Origin: Candidatus Dormiibacterota bacterium
GTDB lineage: Bacteria; Chloroflexota; Dormibacteria; Aeolococcales; Aeolococcaceae
Direction: 5' to 3'
DNA: 64,000 bases
Assembly (NCBI GenBank): GCA_963709585.1
Contig: CAVPXI010000007.1
Span: 352,001-416,000 of the forward strand
Part shown: piece after piece, positions 52,821 to 61,535 of the stretch
Numbering within the stretch: position 1 is the first letter of the stretch
How the letters are laid out: each line of letters starts with the position of its first letter
Position numbers and translations under genes: made by a program
Notes under the pieces: model-generated
Databases searched by the model: none
What the model was told of the DNA's origin: nothing
The model's input: only the letters and a program-made list of their open reading frames with translations

Positions 52821-52843
52821 CCGAGCGACAGGACGCTGGCCTG
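52821..52843 (+). repeat. Degenerate copy of the 28-bp site (spacer collapsed)
   Basis: CCGAGCGACA-GG-ACGCTGGCCTG; the right arm is identical to the copies at 55640 and 57760. Confidence 0.5.
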
Positions 52844-53068
52844 TGCCGGACCAACCTCACTGGCTCCTGGCAGCATATCGTCCCAACGACATCTGAGCAC
52901 TTCGTGCAAGTCGTCGTTCGTCAGGTTTACGAGGCGGCCCGGTGAAGTGCTGAGGGCTTGATGTCTCCAGAGAGCATCCTGCGGCGAGGCAGCGTCTGAT
53001 ACTGTCGCGGGCGCCGATCGGAGATCGTCCGCACGGCCCTGCACGTCGCAACCACGCGGGAGCACCAC

Positions 53069-53674
53069 ATGCCAGACACCACTTGTCACATGTCGATCTC
53101 GCTTGACGGCTTCGTCGCCGGGCCAGACCAGAGCTTGGACAACCCGCTGGGGAAGCGGGGCCAGGAGTTGCACGGTTGGCACATCGGCGACCCGCGGGCG
53201 ACTGAGGCCGACAGGGTCGCGACCGAGTGGCTCATGCGCCCCCGTGGCGCGTATGTGATGGGGCGGAACATGTTCGGCCCGATCCGCGGGGACTGGGACG
53301 AGGAATGGACCGGCTGGTGGGGTCCGGAACCGCCGTATCACGCGCCGGTGTTCGTGCTGACCCATCACGATCGCGAGCCCATCCGGATGGACGGGGGGAC
53401 CACCTTCCACTTTGTCACCGAAGGGTTCGACGCGGCCTATTCCGCGGCATGTGAGACCGCCGGGGAAGCCGGCGTGGACATCGCTGGCGGGGCTTCGACC
53501 GTCCGGCAGGCGCTAGTAGCTGGGGTGATCGACGAGTTGACCCTCGACATCGCGCCTGTTCTGCTCGGTTCGGGCGAGCGCATCTTCGACGGGATCGAGT
53601 ATTTCGGCTTCGAGCCTGCCGAGGTCTTGCACTCGCCGCTGACCACCCACATCCGCTACCGCCGCATCCACTGA
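53069..53674 (+). CDS. Dihydrofolate reductase-like (RibD C-terminal) family protein
   Basis: MSISLDGFVAGP, MGRNMF, AGGASTVRQ, PVLLGSGERIF. Confidence 0.88.
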   Translation: MPDTTCHMSISLDGFVAGPDQSLDNPLGKRGQELHGWHIGDPRATEADRVATEWLMRPRGAYVMGRNMFGPIRGDWDEEWTGWWGPEPPYHAPVFVLTHHDREPIRMDGGTTFHFVTEGFDAAYSAACETAGEAGVDIAGGASTVRQALVAGVIDELTLDIAPVLLGSGERIFDGIEYFGFEPAEVLHSPLTTHIRYRRIH

Positions 53675-53809
53675 CATGCGGCCGCGCTCCCTAACTCAGC
53701 AGCGCGATCAGTTGCCCGATTGATGGCGATCGTAAACCTACGCCGGCTAGAGCCGCAACGCATCCGCCCCTTCCGTCTGAAGTACCGTGACCTCGGCCCG
53801 TCCAAGCCG

Positions 53810-53837
53810 TCACGAGACATTGACGGATACTCGCCTG
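53810..53837 (+). repeat. 28-bp site, copy 1
   Basis: TCACGAGACAT-TGACGG-ATACTCGCCTG. Confidence 0.8.
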
Positions 53838-53931
53838 TGCAGGGAATGCCTTGCTTAGGTGGGTTGCCGGCCAGCCAGGACACGCCACCCCCGCGTGCGC
53901 TGCGCCTGTATCGGTTACCGTGTCGAGTGCG

Positions 53932-54663
53932 ATGCGCGCGGCGCTGATCGACGTTGGGGGGACCCTCTGGTCAGAGGGCACGGGCGGCGTCCAGCCCAGG
54001 GGCCACCACAGCGGCAGCAACCCCGTGGAGCGTCACGGCGTCGAATGGGAAGCCCGACTGTCGCAAGCTGATGTTCCCACGGACCGCGTCAGCGTCCTCC
54101 GTGAGAACCTTAGCCCCCTGGTCCAAATGGCGGTGGAGAACGCCGAGTACTTTGACATCTGGGCGGCGATCAGGGAGGCTTCCGCGATTGCCGGGCTGGC
54201 CAACATTGATGCTGAACGCATTCGCGCCGCCAGCTGCCTCCCAGCCTCCAGCTTCACAGCACCCTTCGTTGGAGCTCTCGATCTACTGACCGCACTACAT
54301 CACCATGACATCCGAGTCGTGCTCATATGCAATGCAATCTGGCGCACGAGCGACGACTACTGGAGCGACTTTCGGTCGTTCCGCCTGAGTGATCAGATCG
54401 ACGCCATCCTGTCGTCTGTCGACCTCAGGTCGCGAAAGCCCAGCCGAGCCTTCTTCGAGGCGGCACTTCAAGAAGCGGCGGCGCCGCCCATGGACTGTGT
54501 GGTCATTGCGAATTCCGAAGTCAGCGACATTGAGCCAGCCAAGGCGCTCGGGATGCGCGCCATTCGCGTTGCGATCGACGAGCCGCCGCCCCCAGCAACC
54601 AACGCCGACTACGTCTGTACGTCGCTCACCGAGGTAGAAACTGTCCTACATAAAGCCTGCTGA
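53932..54663 (+). CDS. HAD-family hydrolase
   Basis: LIDVGGTL, RKPSRAFF, ANSEVSDIEPAKALGM. Confidence 0.75.
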   Translation: MRAALIDVGGTLWSEGTGGVQPRGHHSGSNPVERHGVEWEARLSQADVPTDRVSVLRENLSPLVQMAVENAEYFDIWAAIREASAIAGLANIDAERIRAASCLPASSFTAPFVGALDLLTALHHHDIRVVLICNAIWRTSDDYWSDFRSFRLSDQIDAILSSVDLRSRKPSRAFFEAALQEAAAPPMDCVVIANSEVSDIEPAKALGMRAIRVAIDEPPPPATNADYVCTSLTEVETVLHKAC

Positions 54664-54698
54664 CGGCCGCTGCCGAGGACCTTGTTCACTGCGTGCTT

Positions 54699-54726
54699 TC
54701 TGGGTACATTCTCCGCTCTCGGCTCG
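54699..54726 (+). repeat. Possible degenerate copy of the 28-bp site
   Basis: TCTGGGTACAT-TCTCCG-CTCTCGGCTCG; good left arm, poor right arm; lies just after the HAD stop. Confidence 0.4.
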
Positions 54727-54900
54727 AACGCGCCAGAGCGTACGGCGGGAGCGTCCAGAAGCTCGCAGGGACCCCACACGAATCGATTTCCAGCCGCCGA
54801 AGCGGGTCGGTCGATAGATCGCCCGTCCTCGAAGGCCTCAGCCTGGATAGACGCTCTGTTTTTCGCCAGCGTAAGTCATGACTGAGGACGAGGAAACCGA

Positions 54901-54972
54901 GGCGCTACCATCGCAGCTGGCGTCAGCGATCACGTCGTCTGGAAGATCGACGAGATCGTCACCCTCCGGGAC
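54901..54972 (+). pseudogene. Remnant of an IS1-family-like transposase C-terminus
   Basis: Translates GATIAAGVSDHVVWKIDEIVTLRD, resembling from memory the TPAMAAGxxDHVWxxxEI terminal motif. Confidence 0.45.
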
Positions 54973-54998
54973 TTCGCACCCTCGCTAACCTGGGAGCC

Positions 54999-55136
54999 GT
55001 GGACGACCGAGGAATCCGAGCTGCAAGACGGCGCGTCATCGTCCTCACTGTGGTCGCTGCTGTCCTGGGTCTCCCGCTCGTTTGGCTGCTGCTGGGCCTG
55101 TTTCACGGCATTGATTTCGGTTCGGCTGGCTTCTAG
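54999..55136 (+). CDS. 45-aa single-TM microprotein
   Basis: GGGAG RBS-like sequence; MDDRGIRAARRRVIVLTVVAAVLGLPLVWLLLGLFHGIDFGSAGF. Confidence 0.5.
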   Translation: MDDRGIRAARRRVIVLTVVAAVLGLPLVWLLLGLFHGIDFGSAGF

Positions 55137-55139
55137 CGC

Positions 55140-55277
55140 ATGAAGATCGGATCGCGCCGCGGTTGGGTGGTCGCGTTCGCCGTCGTCCTGGCGGGTATCG
55201 CCGCGGTCTATGTTGCGATGGACCTCGTGCTTACGGCGATCTCATGCGCTAGCGCCTCTGCGTGCGGCGGCGGATAG
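55140..55277 (+). CDS. 45-aa single-TM microprotein
   Basis: MKIGSRRGWVVAFAVVLAGIAAVYVAMDLVLTAISCASASACGGG; starts 3 bp after the previous stop. Confidence 0.5.
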   Translation: MKIGSRRGWVVAFAVVLAGIAAVYVAMDLVLTAISCASASACGGG

Positions 55278-55639
55278 CCCCAAACGGCCACAGCACGGTC
55301 CGCCCCGGGTCGAGCAGAAGGAAGGAACGAGGGACAGACCGGAGCCTCATTCGGTCCGCCCTCACACATTGGAGCAGAGGAGTTGAGGAACACGAGCCGT
55401 GCTCAAGGCGGCGGCTCGCGTCCTCGCTCACGGAGGGGCTACGCCGCGTACTGGAATGAACCCGGCCGAATCTTGGCGAGCCAGTGGTTTGTCGCGATGT
55501 GGGTGCGACCTTCGAGAACGTGCACCGTCTTGTGGGTGTCCGGGTCCACGGCATCGAAGGTCTCGCGAGCGACGACGAGACCTCGGCCCCGATAGCCGTT
55601 GTGCGCGGTGGCGACCGTGTTGATTAGACGGCCCGGCGC

Positions 55640-55667
55640 TCAAGGTACATTTATGGACGCTGGCCTG
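55640..55667 (+). repeat. 28-bp site, copy 2
   Basis: TCAAGGTACAT-TTATGG-ACGCTGGCCTG. Confidence 0.9.
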
Positions 55668-55753
55668 GACCGATGTCCATTCGCCGGACTCGTGCTAAGA
55701 ACCCATGAGATCAGATCGTTGCTACGTAGTGTCGTGGCAGGCAGCCTCGCTCC

Positions 55754-56089
55754 ATGAGATTAGGGCAGGATCGGAACATGGCCAAGGCTGGTGGACCCGA
55801 CAAAGACCGTGGTGGCAAGGTATCGCCGGACGGGTTGTTCATGTGGAACGGTACTGTCTGGCAGCGTTGCGGCGCGGTTCCGGTGAACACGCTAACCAAT
55901 GGGGGGTTCTATTTCGACGGCACCACTTGGATGGCCGTGCCTTCGCCTCCGTCGCCAGTGGCCCCTAGGCATCGTTTTGGACATTTCTCGCCGAGCTGGT
56001 GGTTCATTCCATTGGTGACCGTGGGCGTATTCGTGTTCACCGTCGCCGCGCTCATTCTCTTTGCTCTGTTGAGCCACGCGCACACCTAG
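55754..56089 (+). CDS. Small membrane protein with SPDGxxxWNGxxW-type repeats
   Basis: VSPDGLFMWNGTVW and FYFDGTTW, plus a C-terminal TM segment. Confidence 0.6.
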   Translation: MRLGQDRNMAKAGGPDKDRGGKVSPDGLFMWNGTVWQRCGAVPVNTLTNGGFYFDGTTWMAVPSPPSPVAPRHRFGHFSPSWWFIPLVTVGVFVFTVAALILFALLSHAHT

Positions 56090-56156
56090 AGACCACTGTG
56101 GTCAGCCCGGGCTACGGCCGGTCGCCGACCCCGTGCCTGACGCGTGAACCGAAATC

Positions 56157-56184
56157 TCAAGGTACATTCGCGGATGCTGGCCTG
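56157..56184 (+). repeat. 28-bp site, copy 3
   Basis: TCAAGGTACAT-TCGCGG-ATGCTGGCCTG. Confidence 0.9.
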
Positions 56185-56429
56185 CACGAGGGTGCTCGAG
56201 GCTGAACCTTGACTAAGGTGGTGCAGGACGTTGATGGCGTTCGAATACAGGTCGTAGCCGCGGAACCGTCGACTTCTTGAGGTCGTGGAGGTCACCAGGT
56301 CCATCGAGCAGCCACATAAGCGAGGCCGACAGTCCCGCCCCAAAGCCCCCAACCAGAGCTACTCGCTCTAGGACAACCCGCGGTAAGGCTGGGTGGTGTT
56401 GGGCCAGCGCGTTCAGGAGGCTGAGGGCT

Positions 56430-56960
56430 CTAGCAGCTCCATGTGCCCACGATGTGGAGGAGTGGGGTCGTCGCCCTGAGCGCTGCGAGGTTCGCATCCA
56501 CTGAACCGTGAATGGTTCCAGTGGTGGTCTTCGAGAGGGTAATAGTGCCGCTACTCATGGGGCTATCTTGTCCTGCGGCCCAAGTTTCGGAGTTAGCGGC
56601 AAAGATCGCAACAGATCCCGGAGGTCCCGGCGACTGCAGTTCGCCTGCCAGGGGGAGCTTGAACGTCCCCACTCCGCCAAGAAATTTGAGCGCGACGTCC
56701 GTCGATCCAGCGCTGAAGTCAACCGTACCGGTGAGTTCCAGGTCGGCAGGTGGTGGCGATGCCAGCCCGGTAGATATGTCGACGATGGAACAACCGGTGC
56801 CGGCCTTCTGCGTGCCAGCGGTCACCGTACGGGTTATGGCTCCGGAAAGCGTCAGTGAACCCTGCGCAACTCTCGCTGCCGGGGTTGCCGATCCACAACT
56901 TGTCCCCACGAGAAGGGACGCGAGGACGACGCCCGTTCGTACTGCTCGGATCAGGCCCAT
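56430..56960 (-). CDS. Putative lipoprotein
   Basis: Signal peptide ending LLVGTSC; Ser/Thr/Gly-rich, beta-type body. Confidence 0.65.
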   Translation of the reverse strand: MGLIRAVRTGVVLASLLVGTSCGSATPAARVAQGSLTLSGAITRTVTAGTQKAGTGCSIVDISTGLASPPPADLELTGTVDFSAGSTDVALKFLGGVGTFKLPLAGELQSPGPPGSVAIFAANSETWAAGQDSPMSSGTITLSKTTTGTIHGSVDANLAALRATTPLLHIVGTWSC

Positions 56961-57038
56961 TTCAACACCAGCATACGAAGATCATCCAGGGGCGACAACG
57001 ACAGCGACACATGAGTCGCCGGGTCCGACCGGAACAGC

Positions 57039-57066
57039 TCAAGGGACATTGGCGTGTACTGGCCTG
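57039..57066 (+). repeat. 28-bp site, copy 4
   Basis: TCAAGGGACAT-TGGCGT-GTACTGGCCTG. Confidence 0.85.
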
Positions 57067-57226
57067 AGCCACGCACCCATGCCTAGATCGGGTCGGACGA
57101 CCTGCTAGCCCGGGCCTCTCCCGCGCCTGAAGATCGTCGCCATCGGTTCGCCGCCCTTACTCTCCCCGGCATTGCACCCCTTGTCGCGGGACACGGCATC
57201 GCCGAAGCTTTCATCGCATGGTTCGG

Positions 57227-57689
57227 CTACTTCAAGAGGTGCACGAGTGTCGTCTCAGTGGCGACTGGATCCGGCGTCGGATCTCCGTAGATCTCCCAGG
57301 AGAGCCCAGCTCGACTCCCTCCGGTTCGCGGCCATCCATTTATCGATCGCGTTGTATGCCTCGTTCATGCGGTTGTACGGCCCGCGGTGGACGGCTACGG
57401 CAGCTTCCCCTCCTGGTGCTTCGGTCGCGTAGACCTCGCCCACGGTCTCAAATGTGCGCGTGACTTCGACGCCGAAGTCGCACACGATCGGCGCGCCCGG
57501 CTGCTTCGAATCCTGGTAGAGGAATATGTTGTGGCCGTCAGTCCACAGCCCCGGCTGACTGCGAATGAAGTCCCAGACCTTGCCCAGCGCTGGCCCCCAC
57601 GCCGAGCCAATCTCGTCCGGCGCAACCTCGCGACGCACGGCGGCCAACTTGCGGGGCTGAACAGTCTGTACGTCGACTGAGACCAGCAT
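57227..57689 (-). CDS. GyrI-like small-molecule-binding protein (apparent +1 indel near 57311)
   Basis: LAAVRREV, AVAVHRGPY; SAGLSWEIYGDP..TETTLVHLLK is restored by removing one base next to GAGTC. Confidence 0.8.
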
Positions 57690-57759
57690 TCCACGATCGT
57701 AAACAAGCCGAGGCGGATAAGGAGCTCTCACCGTCGACACCGGACTGACCCCCGGTCAC

Positions 57760-57787
57760 TCAAGGTACATTCCCGGACGCTGGCCTG
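57760..57787 (+). repeat. 28-bp site, copy 5
   Basis: TCAAGGTACAT-TCCCGG-ACGCTGGCCTG. Confidence 0.9.
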
Positions 57788-57923
57788 GTCTGCCGAGGTC
57801 ACGCTCGGGACTGGCGCTGGGATCGCGTCGCCGCATCCGTGTGAACTCGATCTTCTCGCGAACCAACACCGTCAGCGACTCCCCGCAAAAGAGCGATGCA
57901 TCCGAGCTGGTCGGGATCAGAGG

Positions 57924-58103
57924 TCAGCCATTGGCGGCGTTGCGCTGGATCGTGGACGGAATCAGCGGGTCCGGTAACTGGGGTCCACGGAGTTCCACCA
58001 CTGGGCCGCCTGCGTCGTGTCGCCGGCGGTAGCGGGAGTCCGATACCTCACCGAGAATGATGATGGCAAGCACTAACCCGATCGCGCTCGCGACGACAAG
58101 CAT
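57924..58103 (-). CDS. Small membrane protein (59 aa)
   Basis: GGAGG RBS; MLVVASAIGLVLAIIILGEVSDSRYRRR... Confidence 0.5.
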   Translation of the reverse strand: MLVVASAIGLVLAIIILGEVSDSRYRRRHDAGGPVVELRGPQLPDPLIPSTIQRNAANG

Positions 58104-58345
58104 GCCTAGCCTCCAGCATCCTGCTTACAGATCGGTCGTCCTATACCCCAGCACACCATAGGGTCATCCTCCGCCGTTTCTGTCGCGCATGCAAGCAGAA
58201 GCGAATCGAGCACCCAGGAGGATCAGCTGACATGCCGACTTCGTAGCTCGTGATCGTGAGCTGCGTCGAGGCGCTGAGTATCCGAACGGCGAGGCGGCGA
58301 GGAGAGTAAGTGTTGAGCTTTCGGGCCGAACGGTCTATCTCCCCC

Positions 58346-58373
58346 TCAAGGTACATTGGCGGATACTCGCCTG
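58346..58373 (+). repeat. 28-bp site, copy 6
   Basis: TCAAGGTACAT-TGGCGG-ATACTCGCCTG. Confidence 0.9.
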
Positions 58374-58422
58374 CACGACCTTTATCTCACCGCATGCGGG
58401 CCCCAGCACGAGGCGGGGCCAC

Positions 58423-58833
58423 CTACGGCTCCGTGATCTGGAGACTCACGGTGACGGTGGCTCCGTTGTTGACCGTCACGGTGGCGCTATAACGACCCGG
58501 TTCCTCCTGCTGCGGCGCGGAGACAGTGTAGGTTCCGGGCGACAGGTCGAATTCAAAGACGCCGCTGGCGTTCGTCGTTGCCGTGCCGGCCACCGTTCCA
58601 TCGGGACGCGTTGCGGTGATGGCCGCGTTCTTCTCCACTTGGAAATAGCCGGAGGGGCACGGAGACCGTCCCATGCAGGTGGGAACGGGTCCGGCGGTGA
58701 GGGTGAAGGTTCCGTGGATGTGGCCCTCAGCCGTAGGTCCGGTCGACGGCGGACTCGCAGTCGAGGATACCGAGCTGGCGCACCCGGTGACCGCTATTGC
58801 TATGACGGCGAGACTCAGCCGTAGGCGTTGCAC
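58423..58833 (-). CDS. Lipoprotein with a carboxypeptidase-regulatory-like domain
   Basis: Lipobox AVTGC; TTNASGVFEFDLSPGTYTVSA; GGGAG RBS. Confidence 0.75.
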   Translation of the reverse strand: MQRLRLSLAVIAIAVTGCASSVSSTASPPSTGPTAEGHIHGTFTLTAGPVPTCMGRSPCPSGYFQVEKNAAITATRPDGTVAGTATTNASGVFEFDLSPGTYTVSAPQQEEPGRYSATVTVNNGATVTVSLQITEP

Positions 58834-58930
58834 TCAATAACTCCCTGACACGGCCCGAACGGGGATCTTGCCCAGGCGGCAATGGAAGCAGCCCAGGTTA
58901 TTCGGCTTAGGTCCGGGCGCAAAGCTTAGC

Positions 58931-58958
58931 TCTGGCGACATTAGCGACTGCTCGCCTG
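58931..58958 (+). repeat. 28-bp site, copy 7
   Basis: TCTGGCGACAT-TAGCGA-CTGCTCGCCTG. Confidence 0.75.
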
Positions 58959-58999
58959 AGCCTCCCTCTTTGTGCCTGATGCGCGGACCGACCAACGGG

Positions 59000-59236
59000 C
59001 TAAAGCGGCGTTCCCCTTTGCGCCCACCCGGGTCCGTCGGTAGTGACCGAAACCTTCACGCCAAGCAGGCTCATGAGAGCTCGAGTGGCTCGCTCTTCGT
59101 CCATGTTTGCGGCCGCGTGTGTGGCCACGATGAATACCCACTCGTCCTCCCCGTCATGCAGCCAGCGGACCGGTCCGGACACACCATTCTCGATCAGCAG
59201 CGCGCGAGCAGTTGCGAGAAGATCGGATTGAGCCAT
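59000..59236 (-). CDS. Small hypothetical protein (78 aa)
   Basis: Single ORF filling the 341-bp module between sites 7 and 8. Confidence 0.55.
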   Translation of the reverse strand: MAQSDLLATARALLIENGVSGPVRWLHDGEDEWVFIVATHAAANMDEERATRALMSLLGVKVSVTTDGPGWAQRGTPL

Positions 59237-59271
59237 CCGGGACAGAATACGCACTCCCACCTAAACGATCC

Positions 59272-59299
59272 TCGAGGTACATTCCCGGATGCTGGCCTG
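59272..59299 (+). repeat. 28-bp site, copy 8
   Basis: TCGAGGTACAT-TCCCGG-ATGCTGGCCTG. Confidence 0.9.
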
Positions 59300-59335
59300 G
59301 CTCAGGGCTCCAGTCTCCGGACGCCGGAGTGCAGC

Positions 59336-60082
59336 TCAGTTACTCGAGGGCAGCAACGACCAGCAGAGGGGTTCGCCATCTGTGCCGACCGGCGGAGCCC
59401 CGGCGTCGCTAGCGGAGACGTTGGTGGGCGGACCTGATGCCGGAGGCACGATGACTACCTCCGTTCCGCCTGAGGGTGCCGGTCCGATCGCTGACGCCGG
59501 CCGAACGTATGGTGGCATCGAGCGGAGATAGCCTTGGAGATCTGTAGCTGGCACCATGACAACATCCACTGAGGCGTACTGGGTGGCCACTCCGCCTGCC
59601 GCGGCTGAGACGAATTTCCCGTGCAAATCGACAACGTACCAATGACCGATCGCTCCCGACGGACCGGAGAAGGTCCCGCAATCAGCGGGGTTACCGGTCT
59701 GCCAGGCATTGGAGATCGCGTCCCAGAACTCTTGATCGGTGACGTACTTCACCTCCACGGAGTCGACGCGCTGCACAATTTCCGGGTCGTGTTGAAACAG
59801 CGCTTGAAGCGCGGCTTCGACGAGTGGCGGCTCTGTTGGCAGAGAGGCCAGACGCACGCTGCTGGTCGGATTGGTCGGCGCTGACCGCCCAACCGCGAAT
59901 CCCGTCCCGGCGCTCGCGGCAAGAGCGAAGACGATGACCGCAACCACGGCGGCGGAGCGGCGCCCGCGGGGACGCTTGACTCGACTGGGCTCAGGCTGAG
60001 ACTCGCCTATGTCCTGCGCCGCATGTTGGAGGAGCCTGCGTATGCGAGCCTCCTCGATTTCGATGGTTCCTTGATCGTCCAT
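59336..60082 (-). CDS. Putative membrane anti-sigma factor
   Basis: AGGAG RBS; EARIRRLLQHAA N-terminus and one TM segment; immediately downstream of the ECF sigma gene. Confidence 0.6.
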   Translation of the reverse strand: MDDQGTIEIEEARIRRLLQHAAQDIGESQPEPSRVKRPRGRRSAAVVAVIVFALAASAGTGFAVGRSAPTNPTSSVRLASLPTEPPLVEAALQALFQHDPEIVQRVDSVEVKYVTDQEFWDAISNAWQTGNPADCGTFSGPSGAIGHWYVVDLHGKFVSAAAGGVATQYASVDVVMVPATDLQGYLRSMPPYVRPASAIGPAPSGGTEVVIVPPASGPPTNVSASDAGAPPVGTDGEPLCWSLLPSSN

Positions 60083-60093
60083 TTCACGCTCTC

Positions 60094-60642
60094 CTAACTT
60101 GCGTCGATGAGGGAACGGAGCCGGCGGCGTCCCTCCCGTAATTGGTTCTCCACAGTCTTTGGCGTACAGCCGAGCGCCTCCGCGACCGACGCCGTGCTCT
60201 GGTCTTCGAGGTAGGCGAGCACAACGCACATCCGCATTCGCGGCGGCAGTCGCTTTAGTGCGCGGACGATGTCGAGCGTCTCAGCACGCCCCTCAGGCTC
60301 AGCCGAGCTCGCCGCCAAGAGGCGGAGTCGGTCGATCTGCATTCGCATCCGCCGGCGCTGCCGCGTGGCGAGGCGAATCGCGACCATCCGGAGCCAGGGC
60401 CACGCCGGGGTACGCAGGTATCCGGGGTGCTCCCTTTCCTGCCGAAGCGCCTCGACGAAGACGGACTGACAGAGATCTTCGCCGGTACTGAGATCGCCGG
60501 TGATCAGCGTTGCAAATGCCCGGAGCCGCCTCCACTCGTCGGCGTAGATCTCCCGGATTCGCTCGCCCGGCTCCATCAATACCTCTAGCGGCGGCTGCTC
60601 TTCAGGGGAGCTGATCGGCAACCGCTCGTGCATGAACGTCAT
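60094..60642 (-). CDS. ECF (SigE-type) RNA polymerase sigma factor
   Basis: LITGDLSTGEDLCQ, WLRMVAIR, LKRLPPRMRMCVVLAYLED..VAEALGCTPKTV. Confidence 0.85.
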   Translation of the reverse strand: MTFMHERLPISSPEEQPPLEVLMEPGERIREIYADEWRRLRAFATLITGDLSTGEDLCQSVFVEALRQEREHPGYLRTPAWPWLRMVAIRLATRQRRRMRMQIDRLRLLAASSAEPEGRAETLDIVRALKRLPPRMRMCVVLAYLEDQSTASVAEALGCTPKTVENQLREGRRRLRSLIDAS

Positions 60643-60897
60643 GTTCTCTTCTATGCACGGGCGACGCGAAAACCCCTAGAGACACGCAGTTCGACTTCGT
60701 AGTCCGCCACCTAGACCTCCTGTCGTCATGCGAGAGAGAGTGCGCTGAATCGCCACCGCCTGACCTCTGGCGTGGTTACGTCAGGGAGCATGGACGCGGA
60801 CGGTCATCGACCGAATCGGCTCGCCGATTGGGGTCCAGGTGATTGACAACTCAGCGCCGAGCATCATCTAGTCCAGAGGCAGGCTGAACCGAGTTCC

Positions 60898-60925
60898 TCT
60901 AGTGACATTTGCGGATGCTCGCCTG
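60898..60925 (+). repeat. 28-bp site, copy 9
   Basis: TCTAGTGACAT-TTGCGG-ATGCTCGCCTG. Confidence 0.85.
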
Positions 60926-60974
60926 AGCGAGGGTCGCCTTCACATGCACGGGGCCGTGCGGCAATACTGCCCTC

Positions 60975-61535
60975 ATGCGGATGCGCCACCTGAGGGTTCG
61001 GGGATTCACGGCTTTCGCCCTTATCCTGACCTTCGCCGGGTGCACGTCGGCGCCTCGGCCATCTCCGACGCCTAGCGCCCCGGTCCCGGCGAGCATTCAA
61101 GCGAACGGCATCGTCGCTCCGTGTCTTCCTGGTGACGTGAGCCTCACCACGACGGCGAAGCCGGTCGCCCCGCCAAGGACAACCGGAGTAGTGATCACCA
61201 CCACCTTGCTCAACCGAAGGGACTTCGCTTGCGCGCTTGCTATGCTGATATGCCCGCATGGTGATCTTTATGCGGAGGTGGTCAATGCGGTCGGCGCCAT
61301 TGTGTGGTCGCCGGGGTACGCCGTCGGCTGTCCACCGCAGCCCCGTCTAGCGGCGGACATCGTCGCACCGCATTCGTCCGTCAAAGTGACCCAGGTGTGG
61401 GGCGACACGTATTGCGGGCCGGCCTACGGCTGCGGGCCTTCGACAAAGGCCGCCGCGCCCGGGATGTACCGTGCTCGAGGAATCTCCGACACTGTCGGCG
61501 TCGGCAGCCAGAGTGCACCCTTCACCGTTCCATGA
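60975..61535 (+). CDS. Putative Cys-rich lipoprotein
   Basis: Lipobox TFAGC, Pro-rich linker, AAPGMYRA. Confidence 0.65.
   Translation: MRMRHLRVRGFTAFALILTFAGCTSAPRPSPTPSAPVPASIQANGIVAPCLPGDVSLTTTAKPVAPPRTTGVVITTTLLNRRDFACALAMLICPHGDLYAEVVNAVGAIVWSPGYAVGCPPQPRLAADIVAPHSSVKVTQVWGDTYCGPAYGCGPSTKAAAPGMYRARGISDTVGVGSQSAPFTVP

Follow-up and report, generated by a model that had tools for sequence, protein, structure and literature searches.

Integrons are the textbook route for stockpiling and shuffling single genes, and they rely on one family of tyrosine recombinases. Large serine recombinases (LSRs) follow rules described by Rutherford et al. (2013, PMC3783163): the zinc-ribbon-domain (ZD) motif sits 5 bp nearer the centre in attB than in attP, pairings of attR with attR or of attR with attB are not productive, and P-B′-type joints should be inert without a directionality factor. 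Here, we describe an array of 28-bp repeats and small gene cassettes that begins just past korB in a 64,000-nucleotide stretch of a Dormibacterota genome, called the window below (G000:C7:352001-416000, where G000 is the window's own genome: 3.52 Mb in 24 contigs, ∼66% G+C, 88.8% complete). The 28-mers are probably the attP-type halves, together with the TG, of LSR sites, the joints between cassettes being attR-type hybrids at which an LSR would build and reshuffle arrays.

Repeat sites and their anatomy

A sequence-only reading of the window had reported nine 28-mers, and all of them were recovered at 53810, 55640, 56157, 57039, 57760, 58346, 58931, 59272 and 60898, on the + strand and with 0 mismatches at the 16 invariant positions. 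An independent repeat finder returned the same family with the spacings that the reading had listed. Nine matches were observed against 0 expected, and none of 100 dinucleotide-preserving shuffles matched. All copies in the window have one orientation whatever the direction of the genes between them, and these genes have codon-usage scores below those of the flanking genes. A whole-genome scan with a position weight matrix located the copies outside the window's array (three on C15, one on C8 and one on C23); the sites were confined to arrays and were not spread over the genome. Since korB encodes the beta subunit of a 2-oxoacid:ferredoxin oxidoreductase, the array is chromosomal.

A logo of 134 distinct copies from G000 and its relatives showed that the conserved unit is longer than 28 bp, with weaker conservation extending ∼20 nt further to the right at G30, C31, A33, T42, C45 and G48 (numbered from the base preceding the 28-mer). 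The centre of dyad symmetry lies between positions 27 and 28, at a TG dinucleotide that is also the mapped exchange point (see below). The whole site is ∼50 bp long and consists of inverted half-sites around the central TG, the right arm being a weak inverted copy of the left. Two motifs were distinguished in the left arm, TCNRGNKACA (outer) and GGATGCTSGCC (inner), with 5 nt between them. When the inverted outer motif was placed on the right arm, the best fit was obtained at gap 0 (mean -4.7), as against -15 to -21 at the other gaps and a background of -18 (standard deviation 7.7). Left arms thus have 5 nt between the outer and inner motifs and right arms have none, as do the left arms of sites adjacent to LSR genes. 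According to the published attP/attB rule, this 5-bp inward shift of the outer motif on the right arm makes each joint a long-TG-short site of the attR type. Judged by its base pattern, the 28-mer is the long, attP-type (P-type) arm plus the central dinucleotide of a ∼50-bp serine-integrase att site.

A tenth related site, which has the same inner motif and TG and a left arm 5 bp shorter, was added at 52821-52864; the earlier statement that the first 52 kb hold no copy was correct for the long-arm form in a scan of the window. The tenth site lies upstream of the RibD_C gene (53069-53674), which is therefore a cassette too, and it forms the anchor, or head, of the array, 71 nt past the korB stop codon. 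In its left arm, the outer motif directly abuts the inner motif GGACGCTGGCC, as in a short, attB-type (B-type) arm. With a score of 23.9, it is the top B-type match in the 3.5-Mb genome (the next scores 17.5); at a score of at least 9 there are 78 such matches, 12 of them with a TG centre.

Exchange point and movement of cassettes

All-against-all blastn of the array regions gave 47 matches of at least 150 bp, many of which start and end in sites, and 15 homologous cassette pairs from different arrays were inspected by eye. Thirteen pairs were informative at the left joint; two were dropped, either since the upstream neighbour was also homologous or since homology started >100 nt inside. In each of these, the two sequences differ in the upstream flank and across the whole 28-mer, with differences also at positions 26-28, and homology begins 1-2 nt past the TG. 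At the right joint, the long arm of the 28-mer is common to 7 of 8 pairs, rare variants included. These two patterns define a cassette as running from just after one TG through the next 28-mer inclusive. Strand exchange is, on these alignments, at the TG, positions 27-28 of the 28-mer. On this definition, the array in the window reads as follows.

52821-52864, +: anchor (array head); short B-type left arm 52821-52841, TG 52842-52843, weak right arm
52844-53836, +: cassette 1; RibD_C-domain gene 53069-53674 (+), Pfam RibD_C 1.6e-15
53810-53858, +: site 1; long P-type left arm (P score 26.1), TG 53836-53837, weak short right arm
53838-55666, +: cassette 2; HAD-family hydrolase gene 53851-54663 (+), Pfam HAD_2/Hydrolase, plus uncertain short open reading frames (ORFs); low codon-usage scores
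55640-55688, +: site 2; TG 55666-55667, P score 31.6
55668-56183, +: cassette 3; 111-aa ORF 55754-56089 (+), no family match
56157-56205, +: site 3; TG 56183-56184, P score 34.4
56185-57065, -: cassette 4; 176-aa ORF 56430-56960 (-), no family match
57039-57087, +: site 4; TG 57065-57066, P score 21.4
57067-57786, -: cassette 5; gene for a GyrI-like small-molecule-binding protein 57255-57740 (-), Pfam GyrI-like 4.6e-14, weak Cass2 match
57760-57808, +: site 5; TG 57786-57787, P score 31.6
57788-58372, -: cassette 6; 59-aa ORF 57924-58103 (-), uncertain
58346-58394, +: site 6; TG 58372-58373, P score 32.7
58374-58957, -: cassette 7; gene for a 136-aa protein 58423-58833 (-), CarboxypepD_reg-like domain (Pfam)
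58931-58979, +: site 7; TG 58957-58958, P score 21.6
58959-59298, -: cassette 8; 86-aa ORF 59000-59260 (-), no family match
59272-59320, +: site 8; TG 59298-59299, P score 32.8
59300-60924, -: cassette 9; extracytoplasmic function (ECF) sigma factor gene 60094-60642 (-), Pfam Sigma70_r4_2/r2, with a family-less 297-aa ORF downstream, 59336-60229 (-)
60898-60946, +: site 9; TG 60924-60925, P score 28.9
60926-61535, +: last unit; 186-aa ORF 60975-61535 (+), no closing site

The head is therefore followed by ten cassettes, the last of which has no closing site, and no further site scored in the window beyond it. The cargo comprises RibD_C, HAD hydrolase, GyrI-like, CarboxypepD_reg-like and ECF sigma genes and several small ORFs without a family. 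In cassette 9, the 297-aa ORF beside the sigma factor gene may encode an anti-sigma factor. Two-gene cassettes made up of an ECF sigma gene and a large ORF without a family are found in several arrays (window 59336-60642; L023:247-2081; L029:3948-5863), and ECF sigma genes recur in other arrays.

Homologs of the window's cassettes were found elsewhere in the genus, and cassettes shared with arrays of other species and of a second phylum break at the TG. The RibD_C cassette shares 90.9% identity over 1039 bp with a G015 cassette (L003) that follows a long-arm site, and 90.1% over 903 bp with DNA of G010 (L098). The CarboxypepD_reg cassette matches a G016 cassette (L026) at 93.4% over 438 bp and G010 DNA (L030) at 85.1%, the GyrI-like cassette matches G021 DNA (L307) at 88.8% over 561 bp, and the last unit is 73.9% identical over 632 bp to a G016 cassette (L029 8317-8981) that has sites on both sides. 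Some cassettes have different neighbours on both sides, are duplicated within one array or change their order between genomes. The korB gene itself is present in all 42 genus genomes; a related anchor site lies 49-72 nt past its stop codon at 6 of 30 loci that were examined, each of the six with a sequence of its own following the TG. Module content thus differs between strains at the korB locus and elsewhere, with breakpoints at the sites, and the proposal that the sites bound mobile gene modules is borne out by the homologous cassettes.

The same breakpoints were seen in contigs from public soil runs, where similarity to the window stops at 53840, 56185 and 60925, that is, at the TG or 1-3 nt past it, and other cassettes follow. 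A contig of run X3 carries a different cassette after site 1, from 53840 on, and this is the cassette found behind the C8 anchor in G000. In run X4, one contig has only 56154-56185 (site 3) in common with the window, with other sequence on both flanks, and another matches up to 60925 (site 9) and then continues into other sequence. Stretches without cover in runs X3-X5 are no evidence of absence. One X4 contig joins 60925 to 59306 with 5 letters between them, which would fit a circle or tandem of cassette 9 or another array with a similar site; it was not counted.

With one mismatch allowed at most, the motif was found in 22 of 24 further genomes of the genus and in none of 16 from the sister family, while a reversed control pattern gave one match overall. 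Several arrays per genome stand at unrelated loci, such as behind korB and behind a PolX/PHP gene. One-way arrays reach 30 same-strand sites over 33.7 kb in G019 and 36 sites on one G016 contig, and G004 has 34 sites at four places. Among 80 listed of at least 149 matching stretches from named genomes, 48 belong by title to metagenome-assembled genomes (MAGs) of Candidatus Dormibacteraeota/Dormiibacterota, 16 to MAGs of the class Acidimicrobiia and 4 to unspecified Actinomycetota; the remaining 12 are single matches in other phyla and were taken as chance. Five Acidimicrobiales MAGs have arrays of their own with lineage-specific site variants. Over 514 bp, a glyoxalase cassette of G019 and one of an Acidimicrobiales MAG are 97.1% identical, and the closing 28-mers of the two share a rare variant, so that a near-identical cassette stands in two little-studied soil lineages of different phyla. 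Across arrays, the cargo is integron-like (GNAT, glyoxalase, immunity proteins and a GyrI/Cass2-like protein).

Three further observations were made. At G004:C4:262923-265605, four + sites are followed by two - sites as a convergent array pair, whereas arrays are otherwise strictly one-way. Right after the 36-site array of G016, at L026:14552-18386 (G016:C12), genes for a SMODS nucleotidyltransferase, a TIR-SAVED protein and a ThiF-like protein form what looks like a CBASS-type defence operon. Three identical matches 474 bp apart at G000:C14:473578-474552 belong to a 474-bp tandem repeat.

An LSR and replication-gene element in relatives

LSR genes with Resolvase, Recombinase and Zn_ribbon_recom domains are present in 21 of the 42 genus genomes. 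Within the subfamily that shares at least 53% identity with the G010 query, an inverted long arm is immediately followed by the start codon, which is so at 7 of the 20 genus loci listed; an LSR stands beside a site in G010, G021, G053, G062, G006, G003 and G044, and at 10 metagenome loci. Eight LSR-adjacent sites (seven from the genus and one from Acidimicrobiales) were scored. The left arm fits the B-type better than the P-type in all eight, with B-type scores of +6.9 to +22.5 for six of them, the other two (-0.1 and -15.0) being essentially armless, and the right arm is P-type in all eight. LSR-adjacent sites are therefore short-TG-long, the attL type. The metagenome loci likewise have B-type left and P-type right arms in 10/10, and all are integrated. 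A long-TG-short site follows 2.5-3.1 kb downstream at six of these ten loci, and arrays go on past it; three are cut by contig ends and one is without such a site. Between the attL- and attR-type sites lie the LSR gene, a 76-aa ORF and a REP_ORF2-G2P replication (Rep) gene, and this 2.5-3.1 kb element heads arrays in G044, G010, G021 and G003 and on two metagenome contigs. LSR elements with extra cargo occur in G010 and G044. At a PolX-linked locus, G019 has a B-type anchor and the 30-site array, and a metagenome relative has the LSR element.

The LSR is 33-37% identical to serine integrases of actinophages and at most 43% identical to genes of actinobacterial plasmids; among solved structures, the TP901-1 catalytic domain was the only match. 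The LSRs of G016:C20, G024 and G019 (43-47% identical) are without such an upstream arm and seem to belong to other families. Periplasmic-binding-protein genes beside the end sites of Acidimicrobiales arrays, at first suspected to be LSRs, proved not to be. Three sites in G000, at C14:52634, C15:35694 and C15:170866, have the short-TG-short form with a B-type left arm (11.8-13.8) and are not close to any long-arm site; they may be attB sites of the LSR element that stand empty.

The earlier suggestion that the recombinase is encoded elsewhere agrees with what was found, as none lies in the window or next to the arrays of G000. A search of G000 with PF00239 returned only a small serine recombinase of 177 aa, in an island on C4. 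As a cognate LSR was not found in G000, the window's array would be an orphan, comparable to the integron clusters that have no integrase (CALINs). At G000:C8:85875-92656, within a few kb of the single C8 cassette, a 980-aa ORF, a 343-aa tyrosine recombinase gene and a tRNA-like sequence were noted; the region is probably an unrelated integrative element.

Mechanism, rival explanations and known systems

In the proposed mechanism, the long left arm of each joint belongs to the left-hand cassette and the short attB-type right arm to the right-hand cassette, and the array begins at the attB-type left arm just past korB. The LSR, or a copy since lost, would cut and rejoin at the TG and so build and reshuffle arrays. 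Most likely, and with canonical reactions alone, the element would be excised together with cassettes, reintegrate and deposit them. Recombination of attL with a distal attR would release the element with a variable number (k) of head-proximal cassettes and leave the attB-type anchor behind; the excised circle would insert into a second anchor of the attB type, where cassettes would be left when the element is next excised through a nearer attR. Such a shuttle would explain the B-type anchors, the strong long arms (derived from the element), the weak right arms (halves of pseudo-attB sites) and the orphan arrays. Alternatively, the LSR might exchange cassette circles directly. That the LSR acts on these sites, and how it moves single cassettes, we infer from the sequences. 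A broader proposal, in which the 2.6-kb LSR and rolling-circle-Rep shuttle plays the part of an integron with a serine integrase, taking up cassettes, stacking them and spreading them over many chromosomal anchors in soil and peat bacteria of two or more phyla, through non-canonical att pairings (attR-type with attB-type, or an alternative choice of attR), is put forward tentatively and is rather doubtful at present.

Several observations weigh against LSR-driven assembly as set out here. Individual right arms in the window score low (-33 to -7), so that their B-type character is a collective signal, drawn from 134 sites that are not independent of each other, and one of the eight right-joint pairs is without a common long arm. 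An LSR query over G000 (88.8% complete, and covered except for 8 kb on C23) did not find the cognate enzyme, G004 (34 sites, 86% complete) gave no PF00239 match at all, and across the genus site counts do not track the presence of an LSR. A long-TG-long (attP) junction was seen in 0 of 18 LSR-adjacent sites, and the public-run contigs held no clear circle. Single cassettes with unrelated neighbours on both sides and duplicates within an array are hard to explain by the shuttle route and fit circle exchange, a route that the published rules disfavour; as attR × attR and attR × attB pairings are unproductive, shuffling of single cassettes would need several canonical steps or a relaxed enzyme.

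The joints could also be passive scars, each cassette being the decayed cargo end of a separate LSR-element integration that never moved again, and shared cassettes reflecting the same cargo carried repeatedly. The long arms do match the element's own arm, cargo-bearing LSR elements exist (G010, G044) and many arrays have no LSR. Since cassettes begin on the left with a B-type arm and not with a relic of the element's P′ arm, the arrays scanned showed no fragments of LSR or Rep genes, and the same cassette is found between different neighbours, duplicated in one array and reordered between genomes, we regard this explanation as unlikely. That the repeats are regulatory or protein-binding sites (operators, promoters), or mere substrates of homologous recombination, would suit their intergenic position and strong conservation, yet it is highly improbable given a single orientation for all copies whatever the gene direction, their confinement to arrays and breakpoints that fall at one fixed dinucleotide and not anywhere along the repeat.

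Two explanations involve tyrosine recombinases. The sequence-only reading had proposed an 11-6-11 geometry; an Xer-type or other tyrosine-recombinase site so read, with exchange in the variable 6-bp core, would suit the 28-bp length with its CAT..ATG inner dyad and the housekeeping Xer-like gene found in all six genomes compared. However, the left-joint pairs differ throughout the core and right half while the downstream cassette is common, which puts the exchange to the right of position 26; the dyad centre is at 27.5 and not 14.5, and no tyrosine recombinase adjoins the arrays in G000. This geometry was accordingly not upheld, and its probability is put at close to nil. Equally remote is an integron-like system, in which an IntI-like tyrosine recombinase would act on the repeats as short attC-type sites in folded, single-stranded form; the exchange point at one edge of a strongly conserved repeat and the resemblance to integron cargo would speak for it. 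None of the nine tyrosine recombinases of G000 and G019 reached integron-integrase cut-offs (best 76.5 bits versus 265), and a right arm that repeats the left in inverted form, shifted by 5 bp, is the signature of a double-strand LSR site. When both strands of the nine sites were folded singly (18 folds), no common hairpin emerged, every fold being different (z-scores +0.44 to -2.98, with 3/18 below -2.3), and no canonical dif core occurs within the nine sites. The earlier statement that the sites are neither attC nor dif therefore stands.

Other candidate drivers were set aside. In a survey that clustered 63 tyrosine-recombinase ORFs from six genomes, only the Xer-like gene was common to all six, including the site-less G001. 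A family of 313-385 aa lies 7-12 kb from arrays in G019 and G010, is far from them in G004 and G016 and is missing from G000. A 26-mer with a dif-like outline at G000:C23:29879-29904 is single-copy in 19 of 25 genus genomes, site-less ones included, and varies in the would-be XerD arm. IS110-family transposase genes (DEDD_Tnp_IS110 + Transposase_20) occur inside arrays, inserted in sites, at L030:4333-8100 and L027:8455-9800 (G010:C13 and G016:C7), and their ends abut altered sites in which GCATCATT replaces G.ACATT, as if the elements targeted the repeats. IS1111 elements are known to target attC. The seven IS110 copies of G000 are not near sites, and the elements were treated as site-targeting parasites, not as the driver.

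The claim of a new cassette system holds in part: the enzyme family and the site logic are known, and an integron-like array built from them was not found described. In full-text searches, judged by listings and abstracts, we found no description of LSR-based or integron-like serine-recombinase cassette arrays, or of such arrays in Dormibacterota. If the enzyme really handles tandem attR-type joints, it would break the strict directionality rule behind the use of serine integrases as tools and would be a natural multi-site, cassette-stacking integrase. The site rules (long arm, TG, short arm and B-type anchor) make such arrays searchable in any genome.

Of the described systems, LSR att sites come close in anatomy. 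The A118-family Listeria integrase model (PMC3783163) and the present arrays both have ∼50-bp sites with inverted half-sites and exchange at a central dinucleotide, an outer ZD motif that is 5 bp nearer the centre in B-type than in P-type arms, an integrase gene beside one arm (in the present case in relatives of G000) and an integrated element flanked by B-P′ and P-B′ hybrids. The arrays described here differ in having dozens of tandem P-B′-type joints between integrase-less cassettes of 0.3-2 kb. SCCmec-type composite islands and the ssrA islands of Dehalococcoides (McMurdie et al. 2011, PMC3146451) resemble the present arrays as serine-recombinase elements stacked in tandem behind one anchor, with short direct repeats between units, some of which are without an integration module and are thought to move with their neighbours. 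Such islands are several kb or larger, few per genome and served by Ccr-type recombinases, and they insert only at the 3′ end of a single essential gene (rlmH or ssrA), whereas the arrays here stand at several unrelated loci per genome. The units here are of 1-3 genes, with up to 36 per array, and their right arms resemble pseudo-attB half-sites.

Integrons and CALINs share with the arrays the one-way arrangement of small, mostly single-gene accessory cassettes, a similar cargo, a recombination site that travels at one end of the cassette and the occurrence of enzyme-less orphan arrays. Unlike integrons, the arrays have no IntI and no folded attC, and genes lie in mixed orientation in the cassettes; the sites are of the double-strand serine-recombinase type, and the enzyme is carried on a small mobile LSR and Rep element and not on a fixed platform. 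The arrays thus look and behave much like integrons but rest on serine-integrase sites.

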